DNA of 64,000 bases from the NCBI GenBank assembly GCA_965214705.1, contig OZ243972.1:2592001-2656000 (forward strand), written 5' to 3'. Each line of letters starts with the position of its first letter. Position 1 is the stretch's first letter. This stretch comes from Alphaproteobacteria bacterium. GTDB taxonomy: Bacteria > Pseudomonadota > Alphaproteobacteria > UBA828. Under the pieces are notes generated by a model, which worked only from the letters and a program-made list of their open reading frames with translations, had not been told where the DNA came from and did no database searches. Position numbers and translations under genes: made by a program. Positions 21,121 to 33,937 of this stretch are shown in pieces.

Positions 21121-22322
21121 GGAAGGTCTGATCAAGTCGAGTGTGCCATGATTTTCGTAGGAGTCGCAGATTGGATGATCGGGTCATGGCACAGGCGAGC
21201 TTTTCGGAACTGGAGCACGACTTGAAGAAGCGCCGGACGCGGCGCGAGCTGTTCCTGGAGAAGATGGACAAGCTGGTTCCCTGGGAGCGGCTGGAACGGC
21301 GGATCGAGCCGTTCTATCCGAAGGCGGGGCGCGGTCGGCGCCCGTACCCGCTTGCGGTGATGCTGCGCGTTCACTGCGTGCAGCTGTTCTACAACCTGAG
21401 CGATCCGGGGATGGAGGACCTGCTCTACGAGGTGGAGTCGGTGCGGCGTTTCGTGGGGCTGCGGCTGGCGGAGGCGTTGCCTGACGAGACCACCATCCTG
21501 AACTTCCGGCATCTTCTGGAGAAGCACGGCCTGGGCGAGGGTCTGTTCGAGGAGATCAATGCGCACCTGGCGTCGCGCGGCCATTGGCTGCGCACGGGGA
21601 CGATCGTTGACGCGAGCATCATCGAGGCGCCGTCGTCGACGAAGAACCGGCGCCGCGCACGGGACCCTGAGATGCGTCAGACGAGGAAGGGCAAGCAGTG
21701 GTATTTCGGGATGAAGGCGCACATCGGGGTGGACGCCGGGTCGGGTCTGGCACACAGCGTGGTGACGACGGCGGCCAACGCAAGCGACGTGACGCAGGCG
21801 GGAGCGCTGCTGCATGGCGCTGAGACGACGGCGTGGGGCGACGCGGGCTACCAGGGGGTGGAGAAGCGTCCCGAGCACCGGGATGGCGGTGTCGAGTGGC
21901 GTGTGGCGATGAAGCCGGGGCGGCGCCGGCTGCTGGCCGGGGGTGGCGCCGAAGCGGCGGCCGAGACGCGCAAGGCGTCGGTGCGGGCGAAGGTGGAGCA
22001 TCCGTTCCTGTACGTGAAGCGGCACTTCGGCTACGCCAAGGTGCGCTACCGGGGCGTGGCGAAGAACAGGCAGCGCATCGCGTTGCTGCTGGGGTTCTCG
22101 AACCTGCTGATCGCCGGCCGCTACGCGACGCAATGACAGGGGAGCAGTCCGCCCGCCGCCGGCGGGACGACGGGGAATGCGGCGGATCGACGCGGATATC
22201 GCCCGTTCGCTCCGTATCCCGCGACAAAAGCAGCCCCCGGCCTGCCGGCAATATCGTCGAGCTTCAAATCCAAGCCCCCTCTCCCCCTCGAAGCCGCCAA
22301 GATGGGGTTGTTCAGACTTTCC
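21121..22322 (+). mobile_element. IS5-family insertion sequence
   Basis: TIRs GGAAGGTCTGATCAA/TTGTTCAGACTTTCC; TSD ATAG at 21117-21120 and 22323-22326. Confidence 0.95.
21186..22136 (+). CDS. IS5 transposase
   Basis: RTRRELFL, PDETTILNFRHLLE, IVDAS, FGMKAHIGVD, GDAGY, RAKVEHPF. Confidence 0.96.
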   Translation: MAQASFSELEHDLKKRRTRRELFLEKMDKLVPWERLERRIEPFYPKAGRGRRPYPLAVMLRVHCVQLFYNLSDPGMEDLLYEVESVRRFVGLRLAEALPDETTILNFRHLLEKHGLGEGLFEEINAHLASRGHWLRTGTIVDASIIEAPSSTKNRRRARDPEMRQTRKGKQWYFGMKAHIGVDAGSGLAHSVVTTAANASDVTQAGALLHGAETTAWGDAGYQGVEKRPEHRDGGVEWRVAMKPGRRRLLAGGGAEAAAETRKASVRAKVEHPFLYVKRHFGYAKVRYRGVAKNRQRIALLLGFSNLLIAGRYATQ

Positions 22323-22327
22323 ATAGT

Positions 22328-24351
22328 GTGTGCTGGGCAGCGCCCAGATCAGGTGGGTTCAAGTCCCACTGGCGCTCGGGTAAGGGGCGCCATATCCAAA
22401 AGTGGGGGTAATTCCTCACTGGCCGGAGTGAGCCGATAAGCGAAACTCTAAACGGGCACGAAGCCGGAAACGGCGGAGACAGCCAAGGGAGGAGCTAAGT
22501 TGGTCCACTGTCGAAAGACAACCGGAAGGCAGGGTGTCCACCGCGAGGTGGAATCTGAAGGGCTTGCGGAGAAGTACCGGGCCGTAATCGAGGGGGCCAC
22601 CCCATGATGAATCGGTCGGCCAAAGACGGGGCAAGGTCGAGCCGGCACTATGGCGGCGAAGGCGTTCTTACCCACCCGTCGCACCAAGGTGTTTGCGAGC
22701 GGCACGGTACGGAAGATCTGGACGTGACCCCAGGAGGGCTCGCCGCGTTCCCGGGTGGCACCGGGATAACGGACCCTATAAGCCGAAAGGCGAAATGGGA
22801 AAGGATGCGCGGCGAGCAATCGGACAACCGAATAGTACCTGAAGCCCGGCGAAAGCCGGGTGACCGCGCGAGCGGCGGCCGTGTGGGCCGGGGAAGTCGG
22901 TTGGCAGAGGTGGTCGGCGAGAGACAGCGATGAGTGAGTAAGGACCATGACGCGGACAAGTTCCTTGAGCGAAAGACCCGGACATCATGGCCCGAGGAGA
23001 CTCATCGACTGGATCAACCCGGCGGGTGACAGGAAGGTCCACTCACTGGTGGACAAGGTGTACAAGCGGAAGAACCTTGAGGTGGCCTGGGAAAAGGTGA
23101 AGCGCAACCGGGGTGCCGGTGGCGTGGACGGAGAGGATTTAGCGGCGTTCGAGGCATCGCTGGATGCAAATCTCGATCGCCTGCACCGGGAGTTGCGGGA
23201 CGGTGAGTATCACCCGCAGCCGGTTCTCCAATGCCTGATCCCCAAGGCGGGCCAGCCGGGGAAGTTCCGCCCGCTCGGCATCCCGACAATCTACGACCGG
23301 GTGTGCCAGCAGGCGCTGCTGAACCGGCTGGAACCGATCTTCGAGCCGGTGTTCGACGATGCCAACTACGGGTACCGGCAAGGAAGGTCTGCCCATGGAG
23401 CGTTACGCAAGATATGGAGGGAACTGGACGAGGGCAACGAGTGGGTTCTCGATGCGGATTTGAAAGACTTTTTCGGGTCCGTGGACCACGAAAAGCTCCT
23501 CGAACTCGTCAACCAGCGAGTCTCGGATGGCCGGGTATTAGGTCTGCTCAGGCAGATGCTCACGGCCGGGGTGGTGGCCGACGGTAAGAGGCTGCCGACC
23601 GAACAGGGCACTCCGCAGGGCGGCATCGTTTCACCGCTGCTCAGCAATATCTTGCTGACCCCGTTCGATTGGGAAATGCGTCGTCGCGGCTATCGACTAA
23701 CGCGATACGCCGATGATTGGCTGATCACGTGCCGCACACGCGGGGAAGCCCGCGCAGCACTGGAGACGGCCAGGCGGATTCTGGCAAAGCTGGGTGTGTC
23801 CCTCAACGCCGGGAAGACCCGCATTGTCCATGTCAGGCACGGGTTTGAGTTCCTCGGCTACAAGATCAAGCAGGGCGAGCGGCCTCTCCGGCTGTCGTCC
23901 TCCAAGATCAAGAGCGGGGTTCGCGGGGGAGCGCGCTACGCGGTTCCGCGTGAGAAATCCATCCGGCACTTCAAGGACCAGATTCGCCAGCGTACCCGGC
24001 GCAAGGCTCCTGTCAGCACGCAGGAGCTGATTGACGAGATCAACCCGATCATTCGGGGATGGGGCCAATACTATTGCAAGGCCCACGTCCGCGGGCTCTT
24101 CCACCAGCTTGACGGCTGGATCGTGCGGCGGCTCTGGTCGCATCGTCGCAAGCGCTGGCGCAACGCTGGCTGGAAACAGTTGCCGGAGCGCAAGCTGATC
24201 GACGAATACGGGCTTGTTCGCCTGATCTCACTGGTTCCGTCCTTGAACCTTCGTTGAGACACCTTTGTGAAAGCGGCTTACGGGAAAACCGTACGGGCCG
24301 TTTGAGCGGCGGACGGAGGCTAGCCTCGCGGGGCGCCTCCTCCGACCCGAC
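22328..24351 (+). mobile_element. group II intron B (intact), inserted inside intron A
   Basis: 5' GTGTG; EBS1 ACTATG (22647-22652) pairs with upstream CATAGT; DV AAAGCGGCTTACGGGAAAACCGTACGGGCCGTTT; 3' CCCGAC. Removing it restores ATAGT/ACCGATGAAG of intron A. Confidence 0.9.
22947..24257 (+). CDS. ltrA: group II intron reverse transcriptase/maturase, no endonuclease domain
   Basis: HSLVDKVY, GAGGVDG, RPLGIPT, DADLKDFF, GTPQGG, RYADD, FEFLGY, X domain NPIIRGWGQYY. Confidence 0.95.
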   Translation: MTRTSSLSERPGHHGPRRLIDWINPAGDRKVHSLVDKVYKRKNLEVAWEKVKRNRGAGGVDGEDLAAFEASLDANLDRLHRELRDGEYHPQPVLQCLIPKAGQPGKFRPLGIPTIYDRVCQQALLNRLEPIFEPVFDDANYGYRQGRSAHGALRKIWRELDEGNEWVLDADLKDFFGSVDHEKLLELVNQRVSDGRVLGLLRQMLTAGVVADGKRLPTEQGTPQGGIVSPLLSNILLTPFDWEMRRRGYRLTRYADDWLITCRTRGEARAALETARRILAKLGVSLNAGKTRIVHVRHGFEFLGYKIKQGERPLRLSSSKIKSGVRGGARYAVPREKSIRHFKDQIRQRTRRKAPVSTQELIDEINPIIRGWGQYYCKAHVRGLFHQLDGWIVRRLWSHRRKRWRNAGWKQLPERKLIDEYGLVRLISLVPSLNLR

Positions 24352-24850
24352 ACCGATGAAGCGGGCGAACAAGGGGGCGCGAGCCCCTGCGGAACCTGTG
24401 GAGGGAAGGGCCTCGACCAAGGGGAATCCGCGAAGCGAAAGCACGCGCCGGACGCAGGGCCGGGAAAGCGTGACCCAGGCCGCCGAGCGGATACGTCAAG
24501 CTGCAACGAGGAAGCCGCAGGAGAAACTGACGGCGCTCCTGCACCATGTCACACCGGACGCGCTGCGCTGGGCCTTCCACGCGTTGAAGCGGGACGCCGC
24601 GGCGGGGATGGACGGCATGACATGGGCTGAGTACGCGAACGGTGTTGTTTCCCGCTTTAGCCGGATAGCGGGTCGGCGATTTTTCTCACATTGATCGGTT
24701 CAGGGATTTCCCCGGATGGTGGGGGAAAGCGGGAGATCGGCGAGCATCGCGGCTTCGGCGGTTGGCGGTGCCGGGGCGGGACCGTAGTCTCGGGCTGACG
24801 AGGAACAAGAAAGAGGCCCGCGCGGGCTGACTCCCGCCGGGCCATGGCCG

Positions 24851-25486
24851 GTGCAGCTTCGCTACGAAACGGGGCTTACCGGCGAGGAATACGTTAGGGC
24901 CGAGGCGTGGCGCGACGCAAGGCTTGAGCGCTGCCCGAATCACCCGCACGGCGGATGTTCCGTGGGAAGCCACGGCACCTACGGGCGGAAGACCCCGCCC
25001 GGCGCGAGGGTTCCTCGCTGGTATTGCCGCGAGAGCCATACGACGATCAGCCTTCTGGCCGACTGCCTGGCGGCGCGGCTGCCGGGCACGCTCGACGATC
25101 TGGAAGCGGTTGTCGTCGCGGCCGAGGGCGCGAAGAGCCAGGAGGAGGCGGCGAACGAGGTGCGCCGCCCCGAGGACGATGACGCCATCGAGCTTCCCGG
25201 CGCGCTGCGCTGGCTGCGCCGGCGGGTGGATCTCGTCCACGATGTCCTTTCCCGCGTTATCGGCCTGATCCCCGACAAGCTCGCGGGCTGCGCCGCCACC
25301 ATGAGCGCGGTGCGCGACAAGCTCAAAAGCAACCGCGCATTGATGGCGCTGCGCGGCCTGGTCGCCGGGCAGCTGCAGGCGCTGCCCGCGCCGTTGGGCT
25401 TCCAACCCCACGGAACCGGCGCGAGGAGTCGCAAGCCGGGCCTCCAACACTCGATGGGGCCTGATCCGCCCCCGCCAGGCGCCTAG
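24851..25486 (+). CDS. putative Zn-binding transposon accessory protein (DUF6431-like position)
   Basis: CPNHPHGGC...HGTYGRK...RWYC...TISLL; first gene of the element. Confidence 0.65.
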   Translation: MQLRYETGLTGEEYVRAEAWRDARLERCPNHPHGGCSVGSHGTYGRKTPPGARVPRWYCRESHTTISLLADCLAARLPGTLDDLEAVVVAAEGAKSQEEAANEVRRPEDDDAIELPGALRWLRRRVDLVHDVLSRVIGLIPDKLAGCAATMSAVRDKLKSNRALMALRGLVAGQLQALPAPLGFQPHGTGARSRKPGLQHSMGPDPPPPGA

Positions 25487-25530
25487 CGTCATGGTCCCGG
25501 GCCCGAGGGGCCGCGAACGAGGACCGTGAC

Positions 25531-26850
25531 ATGAAGGAATCGGATGACGACCTCCGCCAGGCGATCGCGCTCTTCCGATACGGCGTGATCGCCGATCTGG
25601 TGCATCTGCCGCTGGGCACGAAGGGCGTCGGCGACAGGCTTCGCGAGAAGGCCAGCCAGCCCTATGCCATCCCCGGAACCGACCGGACCCGGGTTGCCGC
25701 CGACACCATGCGGGAGTGGATCAGGCACTACCGCGATGGCGGCTTCGAGGCGCTCTACCCCAAGCCGCGCACCGACCGGGGCAAGCCCCGGCGGCTGCCG
25801 CCCGAGGTCGCCGAGCGCCTGGTCGCGCTGAAGGCCGACAACCCGGCCTGGCCGGTGCGCGCGATCATCCGCGCGGCCGCCGAGGAGGGCATCGATCACC
25901 CGCTCGCGCCCTCGACCGTGCACCGGCTGCTGAGCCGCGAGGGGCTGTTCGACAGGAAGCCGCCGGACGGCGCCGACCGCCGCCGCTTCGCCTTCCGCGA
26001 GGCCGGCGAGCTGTGGATGAGCGACGTCATGCACGGGCCCAAGGTCCGCTTCGGCCGGAGCCGGCGCAAGACCTACCTCATCGCATTCATCGACGACGCC
26101 ACCCGGGTCGTGCCCTTCGCCGCCTTCGCCACGGCCGAGAACGTCCAGGCCTTCCTGCCCGTGTTCAAGAATGCGCTGATCCGCCGCGGGCTGCCGCAGC
26201 GCCTTTATGTCGACAACGGCGCCGCCTACCGCTCCCGCCATCTCGCCCTGATCTGCGCAAGACTGGGCGTCGTGCTGGTGCATGCGAGGCCGTATCAGCC
26301 AGCCGGAAAGGGCAAGATCGAACGCTGGTTCAGAACGCTTCGCGCCGGCTGGCTCGCCCATCTCGATGCGCCGGTCCTGGACAGCCTCCAGACGCTCAAC
26401 CGCAGCCTCTGGGCGTGGATCGAGGGCGAGTATCACGACACCCCGCATCGCGGCCTCGAGGGACGCACGCCGCTGGAGCAGTGGGCGTTGGCCTCGGCCG
26501 CGGTCCGCTACCCCGACGCCACGCTCGACCTCGACGACATCTTCCTCTTCGAGGCCAGGCGGCTGGTCCACAAGGACCGCACCGTCAGCCTCAACGGTCG
26601 CGTCTACGAGGTCGACGCCATCCTGGTCGGGGAAAGGGTCGTGCTGCGCTACGACCCGGAGGCACCGCCCGGCCGGCCGCTCGACGTGGTCTGCGACGGA
26701 AAGCCCGCCGGCCAGGCAACCCGCCTCGACGCCTATGCCAACACCGCGGTGAAGCGCGGCCACTACTCCAAGAAGATCGAGCCCGACGACCCGGCGCCCG
26801 AGCCGCCGCCCTCGCCGCTCAAGATGCGCAAGTTCAAGGAGGACGACTGA
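25531..26850 (+). CDS. DDE transposase/integrase (IS481/Mu-like, rve core plus C-terminal beta-barrel)
   Basis: N-terminal HTHs, WMSD, FIDD, YVDNG, KGKIERWF. Confidence 0.92.
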   Translation: MKESDDDLRQAIALFRYGVIADLVHLPLGTKGVGDRLREKASQPYAIPGTDRTRVAADTMREWIRHYRDGGFEALYPKPRTDRGKPRRLPPEVAERLVALKADNPAWPVRAIIRAAAEEGIDHPLAPSTVHRLLSREGLFDRKPPDGADRRRFAFREAGELWMSDVMHGPKVRFGRSRRKTYLIAFIDDATRVVPFAAFATAENVQAFLPVFKNALIRRGLPQRLYVDNGAAYRSRHLALICARLGVVLVHARPYQPAGKGKIERWFRTLRAGWLAHLDAPVLDSLQTLNRSLWAWIEGEYHDTPHRGLEGRTPLEQWALASAAVRYPDATLDLDDIFLFEARRLVHKDRTVSLNGRVYEVDAILVGERVVLRYDPEAPPGRPLDVVCDGKPAGQATRLDAYANTAVKRGHYSKKIEPDDPAPEPPPSPLKMRKFKEDD

Positions 26851-27650
26851 TGTACCAGCGCCACTTCGCCCTGACCGGCATGCCCTTCGAGACCCCGGCA
26901 CAGACCGACGAGCTGTTCGAATCCTCGGCCCGGCGCGAGGCCGAGGCCAGGCTCGGCCACCTCATCGAGCTCAAGGGCATCGGCCTGCTCACCGGCGAGG
27001 TCGGCGCCGGCAAGACCACCGTCTGCCGCCACCTCACCGACCAGCTCCACCCGGGGCTGTATCGCGTCCATTACGTCTCGCTCACCACCGGCAACGTGCT
27101 CGACACCTACAAGGCCATCGGATGGGAGCTCGGGCTGACCGTCGAGCGATCCCGCTCCTCGGCCCATCACGCGATCAGGACCGAGATCTCCCGCCTCGCC
27201 AAGGAAGCCAGGCAGCTCCCCGTCCTCGTCGTCGACGAGGCCCACCATCTGCGCAACGACGTGTTGGAGGATCTCCGCCTGCTGACCAACTTCGCCATGG
27301 ACTCCGAGAACCGCATGTGCCTCATCCTGGTCGGCCTCACTGAGCTCAGGCGGCGGCTGTCCATGGCGGTGCATGAGTCCCTCAGCCAGCGCCTCGTCGT
27401 GCGGCACCACCTCACCGGCCTCGAACGCGACGAGGTCGACGCCTATCTGACCCACCGCCTCCGGCTCGCCGGATGCGAGCTGCCGCTGTTCGAGGAGGCC
27501 GCCGTCGAGGCCCTGTTCCAGGGCACCCGCGGCCTGCCGCGCCAGATCAACCGCATCGCCCATTACGCGCTGTCGGCCGCCGCCCTCGACAAGGCAAAGA
27601 CCGTCAACGCCAACCACATCCAGACCGCCCTCGACGAGCTTCAGCCATGA
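26850..27650 (+). CDS. ExeA-family AAA+ ATPase (TniB/TnsC-like transposition partner)
   Basis: GEVGAGKTT, VLVVDEAH, LSQR, GLPRQIN; start overlaps the transposase stop. Confidence 0.9.
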   Translation: MYQRHFALTGMPFETPAQTDELFESSARREAEARLGHLIELKGIGLLTGEVGAGKTTVCRHLTDQLHPGLYRVHYVSLTTGNVLDTYKAIGWELGLTVERSRSSAHHAIRTEISRLAKEARQLPVLVVDEAHHLRNDVLEDLRLLTNFAMDSENRMCLILVGLTELRRRLSMAVHESLSQRLVVRHHLTGLERDEVDAYLTHRLRLAGCELPLFEEAAVEALFQGTRGLPRQINRIAHYALSAAALDKAKTVNANHIQTALDELQP

Positions 27651-28714
27651 ACAGCGTCGCCACCGAGGGCATGGCGATGACCGGCTTCCCGACGCGGGCG
27701 CCGATCGAGCTGGAGGACCGGCCGCGCCAGCAGCAGTGGCTCATCGACGGGCTCTGGGGGCGCCAGGCCGTCGGCATCGTCGGCGGCGAGCCGAAGTGCG
27801 GCAAGTCCTTCCTCGCGCTCGACATCGCCGTCGCGGTCGCCGCCGGCGTCCCATGCCTGCGCCGCTTCGCCGCCGACCGGCCGGGCCCGGTCCTGCTGTT
27901 CGCCGCCGAGGACGCCGGGCACATCGTGCGTGCCCGCCTCCAGGGTATCGCGAGCGCCGCCGGCGCCCGCTTCGACGCCCTCGACATCGCGGTCATCGAC
28001 GTGCCCGCGCTGCGCCTCGATCATCGCGCGGACCGTCAGCGCCTGGTGCAAACGGTGGAACGCGTCCGGCCCCGCCTCGTGGTCCTCGACCCCCTGGTCC
28101 GCCTGCACGGCATCGACGAGAACACCGTCGCCGAGGTCGCCCCCATCCTCGGCTTCCTGCGCGACGTCCAGCGCCGCTTCGAGACCGCCGTGCTGCTGGT
28201 CCACCACGCACGAAAGAGCGGCGCCGCCAGGCCGGGCCAGGCCCTGCGCGGAAGCAGCGAGCTGCACGCCTGGGGCGACTCCAATCTGTACCTGCGCCGG
28301 CGAGACAGGCAGATCCTCATGACCGTCGAGCATCGCGCCGCCCCCGGCCTCAACGACATCGAAATCGAGCTCGCCGACGACGGCAAGGGGCCCGCGCTGC
28401 GCCTCCGCCAGGTCGAGACCGGCGATGCCGCGCCGCGGCCCGAAACCCCTGAACGGCGCATCCTCCAGGCCCTCGCCGAAGCCGACGCGCCGCTCTCCCA
28501 GCGCCAGATCCGGGAGCGCGCCGCAACCCGGCACAAGACCGTGGGCGCCATCCTGCGAAAGCTCGTCCGTGAGGGACGCATCCGGCACGACGCCGAGGGA
28601 CATTACAGCCTCGTCACAGGCGAAACCGAGAACGCCGCGCCGGACGACGCCGCCAATGGCAGCCGCCATCCGGACGCCTCGCGGTTCCCGCCTCCCGGTT
28701 CCGCCCATCCCTAG
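27647..28714 (+). CDS. RecA-superfamily (AAA_25, RepA-helicase-like) ATPase with C-terminal winged helix
   Basis: QWLIDGL, GEPKCGKS, AAED, LVVLDP, VHHARK, RGSSEL; C-terminal ILQAL..LSQRQI..LRKLVREGRI..Y; ATGA overlap with the ATPase. Confidence 0.8.
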   Translation: MNSVATEGMAMTGFPTRAPIELEDRPRQQQWLIDGLWGRQAVGIVGGEPKCGKSFLALDIAVAVAAGVPCLRRFAADRPGPVLLFAAEDAGHIVRARLQGIASAAGARFDALDIAVIDVPALRLDHRADRQRLVQTVERVRPRLVVLDPLVRLHGIDENTVAEVAPILGFLRDVQRRFETAVLLVHHARKSGAARPGQALRGSSELHAWGDSNLYLRRRDRQILMTVEHRAAPGLNDIEIELADDGKGPALRLRQVETGDAAPRPETPERRILQALAEADAPLSQRQIRERAATRHKTVGAILRKLVREGRIRHDAEGHYSLVTGETENAAPDDAANGSRHPDASRFPPPGSAHP

Positions 28715-29515
28715 GAGTTCGAGCGGGAACCGCCCGCCGGAACCGCCCCCCAGGCGCCTCTCGGGCTCAAAAAACGACAATGCGTCGAGCGATCGGCCCG
28801 TGGCCGAAAGCTCCGCTTACGGCCATGGATGCACTTCGTCGGATGGACGGCGGCGGGTCACCCGAAGGGCCGTAGCGAAGCGGAGGAGCCGCGCAGCGGC
28901 TTGACGCGCCGACGGCCGTCCGACACCCCGGCACCCTGTCCCCCTTCCGGCAATGACCGATCAGTCCGGGAAATACGCGCGCCCGTCACCCGAAATAACC
29001 CGGGAAATCCGTCGTCAATCAATCCGGGAAACAACAACGGGCTGGAAGAGCGGCTGCTCGACCTGCACCGGCGCGTGCAGTCCGGGGCGTATCGAGCGCC
29101 GCCGGTCCGGCGGGTAGAGATACCCAAGCCGGACGGCGGGACACGACCGCTCGGCGTTGCCGCGCTGGAGGACAAGATCGTCCAGAAGGCGGTGACGGAG
29201 ATCATCCTGACGCCGATCTACGAGCCGGTCTTCCTCGGCTTCAGCTACGGGTTCCGACCGGGGCGCGGGGCGCATGACGCGCTCGACGCGCTCGCTGTCG
29301 CCATCAATCGGCGGAAGGTCAACTGGGTGGTCGACTGCGACATCCAAAGGTTCTTCGATACCGTTTCGCGGGACTGGCTGGTCCGGTTCCTCAAGCACCG
29401 GATCGGGGACCGGCGGGTGATCAGGCTGATCGTCAAGTGGCTGAAAGCCGGCGTCATGGTCGATGGCCGGTGGCAGGACACCTCGCAGGGCACGCCACAA
29501 GGGGCGATCGTTTCG

Positions 29516-29547
29516 CCGCTGTTATCGGAACGTTCCGATAACAGCGG
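29516..29547. repeat. perfect 32-bp palindrome at the RIT left junction
   Basis: CCGCTGTTATCGGAAC-GTTCCGATAACAGCGG. Confidence 0.95.
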
Positions 29548-29642
29548 ATATGGGAACCTTATGATTCTGGGAACCTGAGCCGCTGCGGGCGTTGATTATC
29601 AAGGGATTGGGCACGGCTCAGGTTCCCATAAGATTGGCGGGT

Positions 29643-30635
29643 TCAGGTGCCTGCAAGCATCGCGAGCACCTCGTCCTGCGCACCCTTGAACACGCCCTTC
29701 CGGAGGCTGGGAGGGCGCCATTTGTCGAGCGTATCCAGCTTGTCGGTGGGATCCGCCTGCAGGTACATCTCGGTGGTCTGAACGCTGGAGTGCCCGAGCC
29801 AGAGTGAGACCTTCCTGACGTCGCCTGTCGCCTCGAGAGTGTGGATCGCGCAAGCGTGCCGCAATAGATGGGGAGATACGGTCTTGCCGGCGATCGACGG
29901 CACGCTGCGCGCAGCGGTTTGCGCATGCAGGACAATCCGTTTGGCGAAGCCGCGCCGGGTCATGCCGGTGCCCATGGCATTGAGGAAGAGATGCCGGTCG
30001 GCACTCTTCGGCCGGATAGCGAGCCAGTCGCGCAGGGCACCGCGGGTTTCCTTCCACAGCGGCAGGATGCGTTCCCGCCGGCCCTTGCCGATGACGTGCA
30101 CCTCGTCGAGGGCCGGCATCTTCAGATCGTCGAGCGCGAGCCCGACCAGCTCCGAGACCCGCAGGCCGGCGTTGTAGGTGAGACACAGCATCGCGCGGTC
30201 CCGTGTTCCAGCCACCGTGCCCGGATCCGGCGCGTCGAGCAGAGCCTGCGTTTCCGCCCGGTCGAGAGAGCCGATGAGGGGCACGTCGCCCTTCTTCACC
30301 GGGATCTCACGCACCTGTGCGGCGAGGTCGAGATATCCCGGGTGCCGGAACTCGAGGAAGCGGAAGAAGGCCTTGATGGCCGCGAGCCGGGCATTGCGTG
30401 TACGCACCCCGTTTTCCCGATCCCGTTCGAGATGTTCGAGGAACTCAAGAAGGGTCGCTATGTCGAGATGACCGATCTCGAGCTTGCAGGGCCGAATGCC
30501 GTGCTTATCCGCCACGAAGACGACCAACAACTTGAAGCACAGGGCATAGCTCTCAACGGTATGCCGGCTCGTGCCCCTGTCGCGTGGAAGATATTCCCGG
30601 AGGAACATCGCAAGGGGAGGAGCGAGTTCAGCCAT
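29643..30635 (-). CDS. tyrosine recombinase RitC-type
   Basis: TRNARLAAIKAFF, GLRVSE, GKGRRER, HLLRHA, LGHS, TEMY. Confidence 0.92.
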   Translation of the reverse strand: MAELAPPLAMFLREYLPRDRGTSRHTVESYALCFKLLVVFVADKHGIRPCKLEIGHLDIATLLEFLEHLERDRENGVRTRNARLAAIKAFFRFLEFRHPGYLDLAAQVREIPVKKGDVPLIGSLDRAETQALLDAPDPGTVAGTRDRAMLCLTYNAGLRVSELVGLALDDLKMPALDEVHVIGKGRRERILPLWKETRGALRDWLAIRPKSADRHLFLNAMGTGMTRRGFAKRIVLHAQTAARSVPSIAGKTVSPHLLRHACAIHTLEATGDVRKVSLWLGHSSVQTTEMYLQADPTDKLDTLDKWRPPSLRKGVFKGAQDEVLAMLAGT

Positions 30636-31554
30636 CGTTCTTCCTCCCCTCATGCAGCCGCTCGGTTGCCTGCGATACCTGTCGCAGCAACACAGGCGTC
30701 GCTTCGAGGTACCAGTAGGTGTCGGCGATGTTGGAATGGCCGAGATAGGTCGACAGCGCCAGCATGTGACGGCCGACATCCCGCCGCTCGGCCGAGACCA
30801 TATGTTCGAGCGCGCGAACTGCGAAGCTGTGCCTGAGGTCATGAAGGCGCGGCCCGGGCTCGCCTGGCCCGCCTCGAAGCCCGACCCGCCGTGCCAGCTT
30901 GATGAAGACGGTACAGAGATAGACCGGGTGCATGGGCCGGCCCGTCGAGAGCACGAACAGGTGGTCGTCGGGCCCACCGCGGCGCTTCCTCTCCGCGAGA
31001 TACGTCTCCATGGCCCGATGGACGCTGTCATCCAGCGGGATGAGGCGGCGCTTGCCGAACTTCGCCTTCCTGATCAGCAGGCCATCCACCGTCAGGTCCG
31101 TCAGCAGGAGGCCGGTCGCCTCCGAGCGCCGCAATCCGGTCGCGGCGATCAGCCCCAGGATGTAATGGAACGTCAGGGGCGTGATCGAACCGGCCGGCGG
31201 CAGCTCCAGCGCCGCATCCATGATCAGCCCGATCTCGGTCAATGACAGCAGATGAGGCGATGGCCGCCGTGATACTGCCTTGCCCAGGGCGTCGCGGTCA
31301 GGCACCTCGTGGCGTTCGTCTTCGGCGTGCAGGACGCTGGCAAGATCGCACACGTAGCGCAGCTTGACCTGCGCCTGGCGGGGAGACGGCGTTGTCGATG
31401 CCCAATCGAGGACCGTGCTGCTGCGCACGAAGCTGTCACCATGGGCCTCGGCGTAGGTCGCGTAATCCTGCAGGCACCGCGCCTGTTCCACATAGGCGTG
31501 GCCCAGAGCCCGGCGGAATATAACGTAACGCTCCACATGGTCGGCCAGGGTCAT
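30628..31554 (-). CDS. tyrosine recombinase RitB-type
   Basis: GLRRSE, KFGKRR, HDLRHSFA, LSTYLGH, TYWYL. Confidence 0.92.
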   Translation of the reverse strand: MTLADHVERYVIFRRALGHAYVEQARCLQDYATYAEAHGDSFVRSSTVLDWASTTPSPRQAQVKLRYVCDLASVLHAEDERHEVPDRDALGKAVSRRPSPHLLSLTEIGLIMDAALELPPAGSITPLTFHYILGLIAATGLRRSEATGLLLTDLTVDGLLIRKAKFGKRRLIPLDDSVHRAMETYLAERKRRGGPDDHLFVLSTGRPMHPVYLCTVFIKLARRVGLRGGPGEPGPRLHDLRHSFAVRALEHMVSAERRDVGRHMLALSTYLGHSNIADTYWYLEATPVLLRQVSQATERLHEGRKNDG

Positions 31555-33107
31555 CGTGCTTCTCCCGCGTCCGGCCAGGGCTGGGCCACTTCCCGGAGCA
31601 TTCGGACATCGACCCGCGCATAGATCGCCGTTGTCTGCGTGGACTGATGACGCAGCAGGGTGCCGATGACTTCCAGCGGCGTGTTGTCGCGCAGCAGATT
31701 GGTCGCCGCGGAATGCCGGAAGACATGCCCCGCCGGCAGACCCTCAGCCTTGACGCCGGACCGCTTGATCGCAGCCTGCGCGACCGCCGACACACCACCG
31801 CTGGCCAGGGGCTGATGGAGCGGCGGCATCATGCGCAGGAACACTTTCTCGGTATCCACGACAGGTCGGGCACGGAGGATGTAATCCTTGACCGCGGCGC
31901 CGACGTCCTGCGGCAACGGCAAGACCGCGGCGCGGCGCGATTTGCCGCTGACCCGAACGACGGCCTTGTCCCAGTCGATATCGTTCAGCCGAAGATTGGC
32001 GACATCGCCGGCACGCAGGGCGAGCCGGGCGAGGAGCAACAGGATGGCGCGATCCCGCAGTCCCATGGGCGTCGCCCGGTCGCAGGATGCGATGATGCGT
32101 TCGATGTCGTCCCGCGGCAGATGACGGGGCAATGTCGAGAACCTCTGAAGGGGGACCGTCGGCACCGCAGCGACAAGTCCCGGCCGGCAAAGGCCATCCA
32201 GCACGAGGAAGCGCAGATACAGCCGAAGCGCCGACGTCTCGCGTCGGACAAGATCGCGCGATGCCGTCTCAAGGCGGCACTGCACCGTGTTCCTGATCAG
32301 CGTCGCGCTGTATCGATCGGGATCGTCGCCAAGATGGGGAAGCAGCACCCGCATGGCCTTGTGGTAGCTCTCTATGGTCCTCTCCCCGATGCCGCGATAG
32401 CGCCGCAGCCAGACCAGAAAACGCGCCACATATTGTCCGGGTTCCTCGCGCGCCGGCATCGGGCGCGGCGGGGCGATGCCCGTGCCGATCAGGTAATCGA
32501 TGAACAACCCGATCTTCGATCGGCTGTTGTTGCAACCCGCGAATCTGCCGGTCCTGATGAAGAAGTCCGGATGCGCGCAGGTGCAGTCGTGCGCGAGGAA
32601 GCGGGAGAGGACATCGTCATCGATCTCGGCGAGTGCGACATCGTGCAGGTAGAGCCAGACGATGAAGTGGCGACAGCGCTTCCGGTACGCGGCGATCGAC
32701 TCGGGCACATATCCTTGTGCCACGAGCGTTTGAAGGAATGCCTCCACCACGCGGCCGCCGCTCTCGATCTCCGGAGGTATCCGCACTCGCCCCGTTTCCA
32801 TGAGGAAGCCGAGAAACCGGTGCAGATGCCATCGGGCACGTCCGAGGTTCTTCCGGTATCCGCGCGGACCGGGACAGGCGCAGTCATGGTTCAGGAATCG
32901 ATGCAAGACGCGAATGTCGAGCGTCTCGATCCCCATCCCGTTCGCCGACAACCATGCGATGAGGTGCAGGATCGTTCGGATGCACTTGCCCGTCAGGCTC
33001 GGGGAATATCCCAGGGCCTGCAACCGCGCCTTGTAGGTCGGGACGATGCCCGGATCCGGTCCATCACCCGCCTCGGGCGACGCCGTGTTGGTGATCATGG
33101 AAGACAT
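31551..33107 (-). CDS. tyrosine recombinase RitA-type (long form)
   Basis: LRAGDV, HVFRHS, LRH, TAIYA; duplicated N-terminal FL-x-HDC-x-C module. Confidence 0.92.
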   Translation of the reverse strand: MSSMITNTASPEAGDGPDPGIVPTYKARLQALGYSPSLTGKCIRTILHLIAWLSANGMGIETLDIRVLHRFLNHDCACPGPRGYRKNLGRARWHLHRFLGFLMETGRVRIPPEIESGGRVVEAFLQTLVAQGYVPESIAAYRKRCRHFIVWLYLHDVALAEIDDDVLSRFLAHDCTCAHPDFFIRTGRFAGCNNSRSKIGLFIDYLIGTGIAPPRPMPAREEPGQYVARFLVWLRRYRGIGERTIESYHKAMRVLLPHLGDDPDRYSATLIRNTVQCRLETASRDLVRRETSALRLYLRFLVLDGLCRPGLVAAVPTVPLQRFSTLPRHLPRDDIERIIASCDRATPMGLRDRAILLLLARLALRAGDVANLRLNDIDWDKAVVRVSGKSRRAAVLPLPQDVGAAVKDYILRARPVVDTEKVFLRMMPPLHQPLASGGVSAVAQAAIKRSGVKAEGLPAGHVFRHSAATNLLRDNTPLEVIGTLLRHQSTQTTAIYARVDVRMLREVAQPWPDAGEAR

Positions 33108-33937
33108 GCCGATTCTCCTGTCCAGGGGCAAAACCGGCAGGAGAAAAGCAGATTTTTATGGGAACCTGAGCCGTGCCCAATCCCTTGATAATCAACGCCC
33201 GCAGCGGCTCAGGTTCCCAGAATCATAAGGTTCCCATATCCCATACTGGCGAACGTGTATCTGCACTACGTCCTCGACCTCTGGTTCTATCGCAAGTGGC
33301 GGCCCGAAAGGGCAGAAGGCGACGCCATCATCGTGCGCTACGCCGATGATGTGGTCGTCGGGTTCCAGCACAGGCAGGACGCGGAATGCTTCCTGCATGC
33401 GCTTGGGGAGCGGCTCGGCCAGTTCGATCTGGCCCTGCATCCGGCCAAGACCCGGCTCATCGAGTTCGGCAGGTTCGCGGAGGTGGACCGCCGGGCACGG
33501 GGGCTGGGCCGCCCGGAGACGTTCGACTTTCTGGGCTTCACACACTATTGCCGGAAGACCAGAAGCGGGCGGTTCGGGCTCGGACGCAAGCCCGCTGCAA
33601 AGCGGATGAGCCGCACACTGAAGCGCGTCGCGGAGGTTCTGCGGCGGCGCAGGCACCACGACCTCCACGAGGTCGCCCGGTGGCTGGGGCGGGTCGTCAA
33701 CGGGTGGCTGAACTACTATGCCGTCCCGACGAGTGCCCGCTTCCTGCGACGCTTCACCTACATCCTGAAACGGATATGGCTGAAGGCACTGCGCCGACGG
33801 TCGCAACGGGATCGCTTCAGCTGGCAACGGCTTCAAGCCCTGGTGGACTGATATTGGCCCAAGCCGTGGATCCGCCACCCGTGGCCGGGACAGCGGTTCA
33901 ACGTCAAATACCCGAGGTAGGAGCCGGATGGTTTAAC

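Follow-up and report, generated by a model that had tools for sequence, protein, structure and literature searches.

The window analyzed here is a 64,000-nt stretch of an alphaproteobacterial genome (contig OZ243972.1, positions 2,592,001 to 2,656,000), and it contains a 4,394-bp transposon with four genes: open reading frame 1 (ORF1), a DDE transposase, an AAA+ ATPase, and a fourth gene, gene 4, predicted to encode a RecA-fold ATPase of the RepA/DnaB class. Gene 4 is an optional 3' module that is found at the same position in three transposon lineages; it is not random cargo and is tied specifically to AAA+-assisted DDE transposons. In the reading that we favor, it is probably an accessory ring-helicase module that aids the replication step of transposition.

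Gene 4 and the elements that carry it

Gene 4 (27647..28714, plus strand) encodes 355 aa from ATG 27647, or 345 aa from ATG 27677, with a predicted RepA/DnaB-fold ATPase region (residues ~12-262) followed by a C-terminal winged helix (~268-322). Pfam assigned the protein to AAA_25 (5e-37), and matches to winged-helix families were weak. The RSF1010 helicase RepA was the only significant relative of solved structure in sequence searches (9.5e-9), and the alignment preserves the Walker A GKS, the AED, the Walker B D, and the HH and RGSS stretches. K53, E88, D148, and R201 are invariant in 72 gene-4 relatives (34-95% identity), and H186/H187 are nearly invariant. The AlphaFold model (predicted local confidence, pLDDT, 87.9) contains a three-helix winged-helix domain at residues ~268-322, and Foldseek returned DnaB, RepA (template-modeling score 0.76 of target), and RadA first, followed by Rad51-type proteins. 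In one relative with 44% identity, a fused DnaB N-terminal domain precedes the protein, and the PHROG matches were to the helicase parts of primase-helicases. PADLOC assigned no defence family to gene 4. The ratio of nonsynonymous to synonymous substitution (dN/dS) was 0.27-0.38, like that of the core genes, which indicates purifying selection. In-frame stops in some copies were considered as marks of pseudogenes and rejected, because they are natural stop codons. By sequence and predicted structure, gene 4 is a RepA/DnaB-class (SF4) RecA-fold ATPase with a winged helix; the initial annotation had made this assignment, and sequence, AlphaFold, and Foldseek agree on it.

Self-association was modeled with three copies of residues 12-262. 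The model scored 0.58, compared to 0.00 for the best of three controls, with run agreement of at least 79% of contacts and partner pLDDT of at least 78; in the calibration of this mark, it was passed by 20 of 30 solved homomers and by 1 of 23 single chains. At the predicted contact, the N-terminal residues 12-25 pack on residues 83-140 of the neighbor. Because RepA rings have already been solved, the pass may reflect memory of the model. Ring formation and DNA unwinding by gene 4 are putative, with the self-contact supported by the three-copy model. In one predicted protein from a metagenome (P0169, 597 aa), gene 4 is joined in frame to the AAA_22 ATPase, perhaps as a genuine fusion, perhaps through a frameshift error in sequencing.

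Relatives of the first three genes were collected by a pattern scan using one genome per species, yielding 79 loci in ~17 assemblies, mostly metagenome-assembled genomes (MAGs) of alpha- and gammaproteobacteria. The order ORF1, transposase, ATPase was constant in 79 of 79 loci. Gene 4 was present in 44 and missing from 35 (one of the latter, L040, ends too early to judge), and a small ORF is usual where it is missing. A tree of transposase and ATPase was built from 23 distinct rows, with five partial rows left out (L040, L058, L067, L070, and L074). The 12 rows with gene 4 all fell in one starred clade of 15, the other three rows of this clade were without it, as were all eight outer rows, and the pattern of presence and absence requires at least three changes. 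The proposal of the initial annotation that gene 4 is core machinery is not sustained by a gene that is missing from so many loci, from every outer lineage, and from three rows of its own clade; the expectation set against that proposal, that close relatives would usually lack gene 4, is borne out only in part. Elements without gene 4 are also multi-copy, with 11 and 10 loci from single genomes. When five genomes with such elements were searched for gene 4 (E<=0.001, one query), no match came up in four (multi-copy in three). Relatives lacking gene 4 thus reach at least 10 copies in genomes without a homologue by this search. The genome of the window itself holds one further four-gene copy, 81% identical and flanked by the duplication GGCGG, and two copies without gene 4 that are 99.9% identical to each other, one with the duplication ACGTG and one with none. 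Since elements without gene 4 multiply, including in this genome, gene 4 is dispensable for movement.

In elements lacking the helicase gene, an ORF of 68-75 aa starts at the ATPase stop codon. This ORF aligns with the "hypothetical protein" encoded after the ATPase both in plasmid elements with annotation and in the transposon Tn6049. In the lineage of the window, referred to here as type I, it was found in 8 of the 11 helicase-less groups examined (it is missing in the L062 group, L071, and L085), and it was found in all four plasmid elements; most copies encode 65-75 aa, and that of Tn6049 encodes 90 aa. Copies are located at L011:4900-5121 (contig C1 of the same genome), L036:9117-9323, L075:9123-9329, L091:9129-9338, L014:7158-7355, L015:7100-7324, L193:5766-5981, and L192:5246-5518. 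Every small ORF closes with acidic residues and then F, in most cases as PF (ELDTPF, ELDLPF, HIDDPF, SIDEPF, LADNDF), and several of the type I versions contain QLxLF just ahead of the acidic end. This tail resembles the C-terminal tip of the single-stranded DNA-binding protein (SSB) and a beta-clamp-binding motif, a resemblance that we treat as a lead only.

Two sets of observations concern altered copies. The right end of one element (L030:7001-13136) lies ~2.9 kb past gene 4, and the extra DNA could be cargo or a nested insertion. At three places in the genome of the window (C3:519011-519345, C3:560475-560765, and C1:2513393-2513589), right-end-like sequence abuts a fragment of gene 4 (residues ~134-201); these places look like the result of one element inserting in the helicase gene of another, with the product then copied.

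At E<=1e-30, an exhaustive profile search with gene 4 returned 506 representative clusters, and the number rose to 7,368 at 1e-10. Within the class, a match at 1e-30 was found in 1 of 300 other genomes sampled, and PLSDB (72,556 plasmids) gave three weak matches. One MAG contains 30 copies of the window's type together with 34 copies of a second lineage, type II, a 4.42-kb element with the identical four-gene layout. Type II is absent from the window's own genome, and Tn6049 groups with it (49.6% transposase identity). Compared with the window element, type II transposases are 25-27% identical and the ATPases 27-31%; for gene 4 the value is 67-82%. A scan of metagenomes added 80 gene-4 loci, mostly at 48-57% identity, with two closer ones at 79% and 92%. 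In the 53 of these loci with at least 900 nt of upstream sequence, the gene directly before gene 4 encodes an AAA_22 ATPase in 50 and IstB in three, and of the 38 loci whose upstream sequence reaches 2,600 nt or more, 36 have a DDE gene. The three loci without AAA_22 carry IS21 IstB and IstA instead. IS21-family elements with a gene-4 relative (~51-53% identical) directly after istB were seen at L177:603-3866, L180, and L131:1-2310. Classified by best match, the partners of gene 4 comprise 56 of type II, three of IS21, and one nearer to type I (60 in total).

The history of the module was examined in a gene-4 tree of 94 rows, a quick tree with a midpoint root. All ten rows that represent known type I elements group together in a single starred clade, which itself lies inside a starred clade that also takes in six type II rows; the IS21 rows fall at two places among those of type II. 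Synonymous divergence (dS) of gene 4 was 0.38-0.52 between the two lineages versus 0.29-0.50 within type I, and the transposases of both lineages are saturated. A start/stop codon overlap lies upstream of gene 4 in two lineages. The simplest history of these sequences would have gene 4 at home in type II elements and entering the window's type I lineage once, from type II; it would have entered IS21 elements at least two times, and two or more sublineages of type I would later have exchanged it again for the small-ORF tail. The nesting is the sole basis for the direction of transfer, because the root was not inferred.

A conserved structured motif of 145 nt accompanies gene 4 (28782..28926, plus strand), with covariation in 13 copies. 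The consensus of these copies contains 45 pairs, nine of which changed on both sides, compared with 2.3 +/- 1.1 in 500 shuffles (none of the 500 reached nine) and 0-4 in slid controls. G-U pairs outnumber A-C (19 vs 3), so it is the sense strand of the motif that folds. The whole right tail folded alone was unremarkable (z-score -1.0), and the structure is visible only by comparison. The motif of the window is 94% identical to that of a type II element from another genome, a value exceeding that of gene 4 itself. Rfam contained no match to the motif, and in the window's own genome the motif model found only the three identical copies of the element described below and a partial match in relative B, one of two diverged relatives (B and C) in that genome.

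Boundaries, core genes, and surroundings

The transposon occupies 24643-29036 of the window and is bounded on both sides, as established by reading the sequence and by comparing copies. A DNA search of its own genome (7.9 Mb, three contigs) identified three full-length copies that are 100% identical, and the similarity starts and stops exactly at the termini 24643 and 29036. Copies 2 and 3 are flanked by the 5-bp target-site duplications CGCGC and CCCCG; the window copy has a 4-bp duplication, ACGG (24639..24642, repeated at 29037..29040), for which a 5-bp reading, AACGG, would require that the last A of the element be missing. Identical copies with separate duplications show that the element is a genuine, active jumping gene with recent movement. 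The span given in the initial annotation, 24639-29040, is the same element with both duplications included. Its ends are formed by 12-bp terminal inverted repeats of the TG..CA type: TGTTGTTTCCCG on the left (24643..24654, plus strand), where copy identity starts at a terminus common to relatives, and CGGGAAACAACA on the right (29025..29036, plus strand), where copy identity stops. Three direct subterminal repeats, (T/C)CCGGGAAA, begin at 28965, 28999, and 29023 (28965..29031, plus strand) and are putative transposase-binding sites with matching positions in relatives B and C; the CCGGGAAA sites proper (28966-28973, 29000-29007, and 29024-29031) are clustered in 67 bp at the right end. The clean boundaries, the inverted ends, the 4-bp duplication, and the three right-end sites had all been noted in the initial annotation and are upheld. 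It also spoke of related sites at the left end, where a single one was found: TCCGGGGAA (24708..24716, minus strand) lies on the opposite strand, resembles the right-end repeats, has a counterpart at the corresponding position of relatives B and C, and is likewise a putative transposase-binding site. Across the whole window the 9-mer repeat occurs 17 times with 15 expected, which is no enrichment; the signal lies in the clustering at the ends. The repeats of relatives B and C are similar and sit at matching places, and binding of the transposase to the terminal and subterminal repeats is predicted.

The insertion target is a reverse-transcriptase gene of the group II intron type. Four uninterrupted paralogous copies (88-89% identity) run through the site without a gap and read E-G-L there, and the rejoined window reads N-G-L, as had been claimed for excision. 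Contigs from other public runs bridge the insertion site, representing the empty site. A promoter scan found none, terminator-like sites numbered four versus 2.2 expected, and an Rfam search of 24400-29300 returned no family at E<=1.

Target-site duplications were compared in 61 copies from eight multi-copy groups. Their lengths were 5 bp in 34 copies, 4 bp in nine, 6 bp in six, and 7 bp in one; six copies had none and five were truncated. In the group closest to the window element, 7 of 16 copies have a 4-bp duplication, so the 4-bp duplication seen here is a normal minority outcome. The 43 duplicated targets of 4 or 5 bp share no consensus and are 74% G+C, and duplications and ends look alike with and without gene 4. 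Copies lacking a duplication were considered as a sign of replicative transposition, and this was rejected; one pair has reciprocally swapped duplications. The two members of that pair, L049 and L054, lie inverted on one contig, ~44 kb apart, with the halves of their 5-bp duplications exchanged (cgggg / ccctc), which points to inversion by recombination between both copies.

The first gene of the element, ORF1 (24851..25486, plus strand), encodes a DUF6431-like Cys/His zinc-ribbon protein of 211 aa that is present in 79 of 79 related loci. It gave no Pfam match even at E<=10 and no NCBIfam match. A relationship to DUF6431 is suggested by an hhalign comparison with the DUF6431 protein that a Cupriavidus element encodes (probability 71%, E 3.6e-5, 44 columns), by a weak match of a 64%-identical homologue (PF20020, 0.034), and by the nearest atlas clusters, which carry DUF6431 (0.98) and in which 29-57% of members are annotated so. 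The AlphaFold model of ORF1 (18 sequences) had a mean pLDDT of 57, with the zinc-ribbon part below 50, and its dN/dS was 0.29-0.46. The transposase (439 aa; 25531..26850, plus strand) combines HTH_32, rve (4.9e-12), and Mu-transpos_C (1.1e-5, above the Pfam cut-off); its closest solved relative is TnsB (5e-8), and its PHROG match is a Mu-type transposase (3e-45). The NCBIfam IS481 model gave 214.8 bits, below its cut-off of 224, and the IS21 model gave 40.5 bits against a cut-off of 160. The ATPase (266 aa; 26850..27650, plus strand) is an ExeA/GspA/MuB-like protein preceded by AAGGAGG 7 nt upstream. It matched Pfam AAA_22 (7e-26) and not IstB_IS21, phage Mu protein B is the closest protein of solved structure (8.7e-4), and its top PHROG is a "DNA transposition protein" (3e-27). 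The domains and the MuB and TnsB relatives agree with the earlier description of a four-gene DDE transposon with an ExeA-type ATPase. No match to the TnsA, TniQ, TniR, or BinL families was found among the four ORFs in Pfam or NCBIfam. Start/stop overlaps had been proposed for the last three genes. The transposase stop and the ATPase start do share one base (TGATG), and the ATPase gene begins at 26850; the ATGA overlap of the ATPase and gene 4 requires ATG 27647, and homologues of gene 4 start at the equivalent of ATG 27677 (residue 11).

The transposon lies in a nest of mobile DNA that extends over 21141-24257 and 29037-33131. On the left are an IS5-like transposase ORF (21141-22136) and, at 22947-24257, a group II intron reverse-transcriptase gene that is intact; on the right, the interrupted reverse transcriptase is cut a second time near 29545, and three minus-strand ORFs for tyrosine recombinases follow (29643-33131). 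A stretch comprising the element and its flanks (24400-29300) was looked for in 18 public runs (X1-X18), and at least half of the sampled words were present in 10, including sponge and coral metagenomes; marine metagenomes contained smaller shares. One coral metatranscriptome library had contigs over all 30 bins, and expression of the element is not claimed, because DNA carry-over in an RNA library is possible. Elements of this kind reach at least 60 copies in some sponge-, coral-, and marine-associated bacteria, where they break genes and assemblies.

Possible roles of gene 4

DDE transposons of the Mu, Tn7, and IS21 types are thought to depend on the host for turning the strand-transfer product into a replication fork, and in Mu this handover needs a chain of host factors. 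Three lineages have repeatedly taken up a helicase gene at this one slot and kept it intact, which suggests that some transposons bring part of the fork step themselves. In the mechanism proposed here, the transposase would bind the terminal and subterminal CCGGGAAA-type repeats, nick the 3' ends at TG..CA, and join them to the target at positions staggered by 5 bp or sometimes 4 bp. Capture or activation of the target would fall to the MuB-like ATPase, and the zinc-ribbon ORF1 would serve as a DNA-binding accessory. The joined intermediate would need finishing by replication or repair, because the element encodes neither a second-strand nuclease nor a resolvase. Gene 4 and the 145-nt motif would form an accessory 3' module that replaced the small ORF in this lineage, and its ring helicase would act at the strand-transfer fork or in copy-out, leaving the element less dependent on helicase loading by the host. 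With moderate confidence, we place the predicted helicase at the replication step because of its class, its conserved catalytic residues, the missing second-strand nuclease and resolvase, and the nature of the ORF that was replaced. The four genes, with their natural helicase-less controls, offer a small system for testing the handover from transposition to replication.

An extension of this mechanism treats slot 4 as a replisome-coupling slot, filled either by a small protein with an SSB-tip and clamp motif that recruits host restart factors or by the element's own ring helicase, with the AAA+ ATPase doubling as a helicase loader on the strand-transfer intermediate. IstB, which occupies the position of the ATPase in IS21 elements, is a relative of DnaC. 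If true, the element would contain a self-contained loader-helicase pair for replicative transposition; we offer this extension tentatively, as a possibility that is more apt to fail than to hold.

Several points weigh against a helicase acting at the replication step. Relatives without gene 4 also multiply, as seen in the genomes with 11 and 10 loci, so any benefit of the gene would be invisible in copy numbers. The module is found beside ATPases of 28% identity and beside IstB, which argues against a specific protein partner, and the element encodes no primase or initiator. A protein that combines a RecA fold and a winged helix could also act in regulation or in choosing targets. The gene-4 tree is only a quick, midpoint-rooted one, and the basis is computational for all members of the group, Tn6049 included. 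The motif was found in only 2 of the 80 more distant metagenome gene-4 loci and belongs to the close gene-4 subclade only. Solo motifs also occur with no gene 4 nearby (L096:8082-8225 and L038:2825-2958, both minus strand), where they sit just 3' of a RecD/AAA_30-like helicase ORF (L096) or a tyrosine recombinase ORF (L038), on the same strand as the gene. As these copies follow unrelated genes, the motif may be a general 3' RNA element and not a site for the helicase.

The same features of the motif bear on the idea that gene 4 and the motif let an excised or copied-out circle persist or amplify transiently; the winged helix would then bind the origin, and the motif would be where single-strand initiation occurs. 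Such a mini-replicon would suit a gene whose closest solved protein is a plasmid replicative helicase and behind which lies a structured sense-strand motif, and the only large ORF of an 8.3-kb Caldicellulosiruptor plasmid matches 84% of gene 4 at 26% identity. The transposase is also near IS481/IS3-type enzymes, and these families use circular intermediates. We consider a replicon unlikely, given an element with neither initiator nor primase, a motif confined to one gene-4 subclade with solo copies after unrelated genes, and a transposase whose Mu-type C-terminal domain and MuB-like partner favor Mu-type strand transfer over circles. In contigs of four public runs, no right-end-to-left-end joint was found among the joints listed, which says nothing on circles, because contigs drop rare forms.

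Returning to the insertion data, the lack of any target consensus beyond G+C richness, and the unchanged duplications and ends in elements with and without gene 4, make it improbable that gene 4 is a TnsE/TniQ-like last gene that uses its winged helix and an oligomeric ATPase to steer insertions toward certain sites or DNA structures, or that controls the frequency of transposition. Retention of all helicase catalytic motifs, the relative with a DnaB N-terminal domain, and the presence in ORF1 of a zinc-ribbon DNA-binding protein also speak against it. A selector would nevertheless account for the winged helix and for an operon position as in Tn7-like elements, where target selectors come last; like those selectors, gene 4 is optional and swappable, and the window copy is inserted in the gene of another mobile element. 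Least probable is a selfish or host-directed cargo gene (defence, addiction, or repair) with no role in transposition: its dispensability, its rarity overall in genomes of the class and in plasmids, and the occurrence of RecA-fold ATPases across many systems would fit, but gene 4 directly follows a transposition ATPase in 53 of 53 judgeable loci and in three transposon lineages, with a start/stop codon overlap in two, matches no PADLOC family, and is intact in dozens of copies per genome, and ordinary cargo differs in kind and place.

Comparison with known systems

Within the present data set, the accessory helicase module distinguishes the window element from the most similar named transposon. 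According to the available text of PMC2864759, Tn6049 of Cupriavidus metallidurans CH34 is 3.5 kb in size, is present in 12 copies, and contains an ATPase gene named "gspA"; the available text of PMC4739549 describes 12-bp imperfect inverted ends and a 4-bp direct repeat. In both elements a small ORF comes first, the gene for an IS481-like DDE transposase whose C-terminal part is of the Mu type comes second, and an AAA ATPase gene comes third; both also have 12-bp inverted ends beginning with TGT and a 4-bp direct repeat, and both are multi-copy. In contrast, the transposase and ATPase of the Tn6049 copy on Pseudomonas aeruginosa plasmid pHS87a are only 27% and 28% identical to those of the window, its first ORF (annotated "transposase") has no profile match to ORF1, and a 90-aa ORF takes the place of the 355-aa helicase gene and motif. 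By these sequence comparisons, the window element is a distant relative at the superfamily level only and not Tn6049 itself. The nearest annotated relatives of its transposase, at 42% identity, are in plasmid elements of Cupriavidus necator (pBB2) and Pandoraea pnomenusa. These have a DUF6431 gene, a DDE gene, and an ATP-binding gene in the same order, but their fourth ORF encodes a hypothetical protein of 65-74 aa, and they contain neither helicase nor motif. No account of a helicase-bearing Tn6049-like or IS21 element came up in the literature searched. The Tn6049 group is thus named and little studied, its helicase-bearing form appears undescribed, and the view of the initial annotation that the group is poorly described holds.

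The last gene has its closest counterpart in RSF1010 RepA, a minimal hexameric replicative helicase that gave the best sequence match and the fullest fold match. Gene 4 keeps its Walker A Lys, catalytic Glu, Walker B Asp, His-His, and Arg, residues that we take to have the roles known for RepA. It differs in its low identity (~20%), in the added C-terminal winged helix, and in its setting, a transposon that lacks the partners of RepA, the RepB primase and the RepC initiator.

The IS481 family differs from the window element in consisting of single-gene insertion sequences, compared with four genes here, and the transposase falls under the family cut-off. IS21 shares the two-gene core of DDE and AAA+ proteins, and some of its members carry a gene-4 relative after istB, but the ATPase of the window is AAA_22 and not IstB_IS21. 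Like Mu A/B, Tn7 TnsB/TnsC, Tn552, and Tn5053 TniA/TniB, the element pairs an rve transposase bearing a Mu-type C-terminal domain with a neighboring AAA+ gene; it resembles them further in its TG..CA ends, its multiple subterminal repeats, and the modal duplication of 5 bp in its family. We know of no element of these types that encodes its own replicative-type helicase. Although it is smaller overall than these elements, and has no match to a TnsA-type nuclease, a resolvase, or TniQ, the element belongs, on the basis of its gene content and ends, with the heteromeric DDE and AAA+ transposons of the Mu/Tn7/Tn552/Tn5053 kind.

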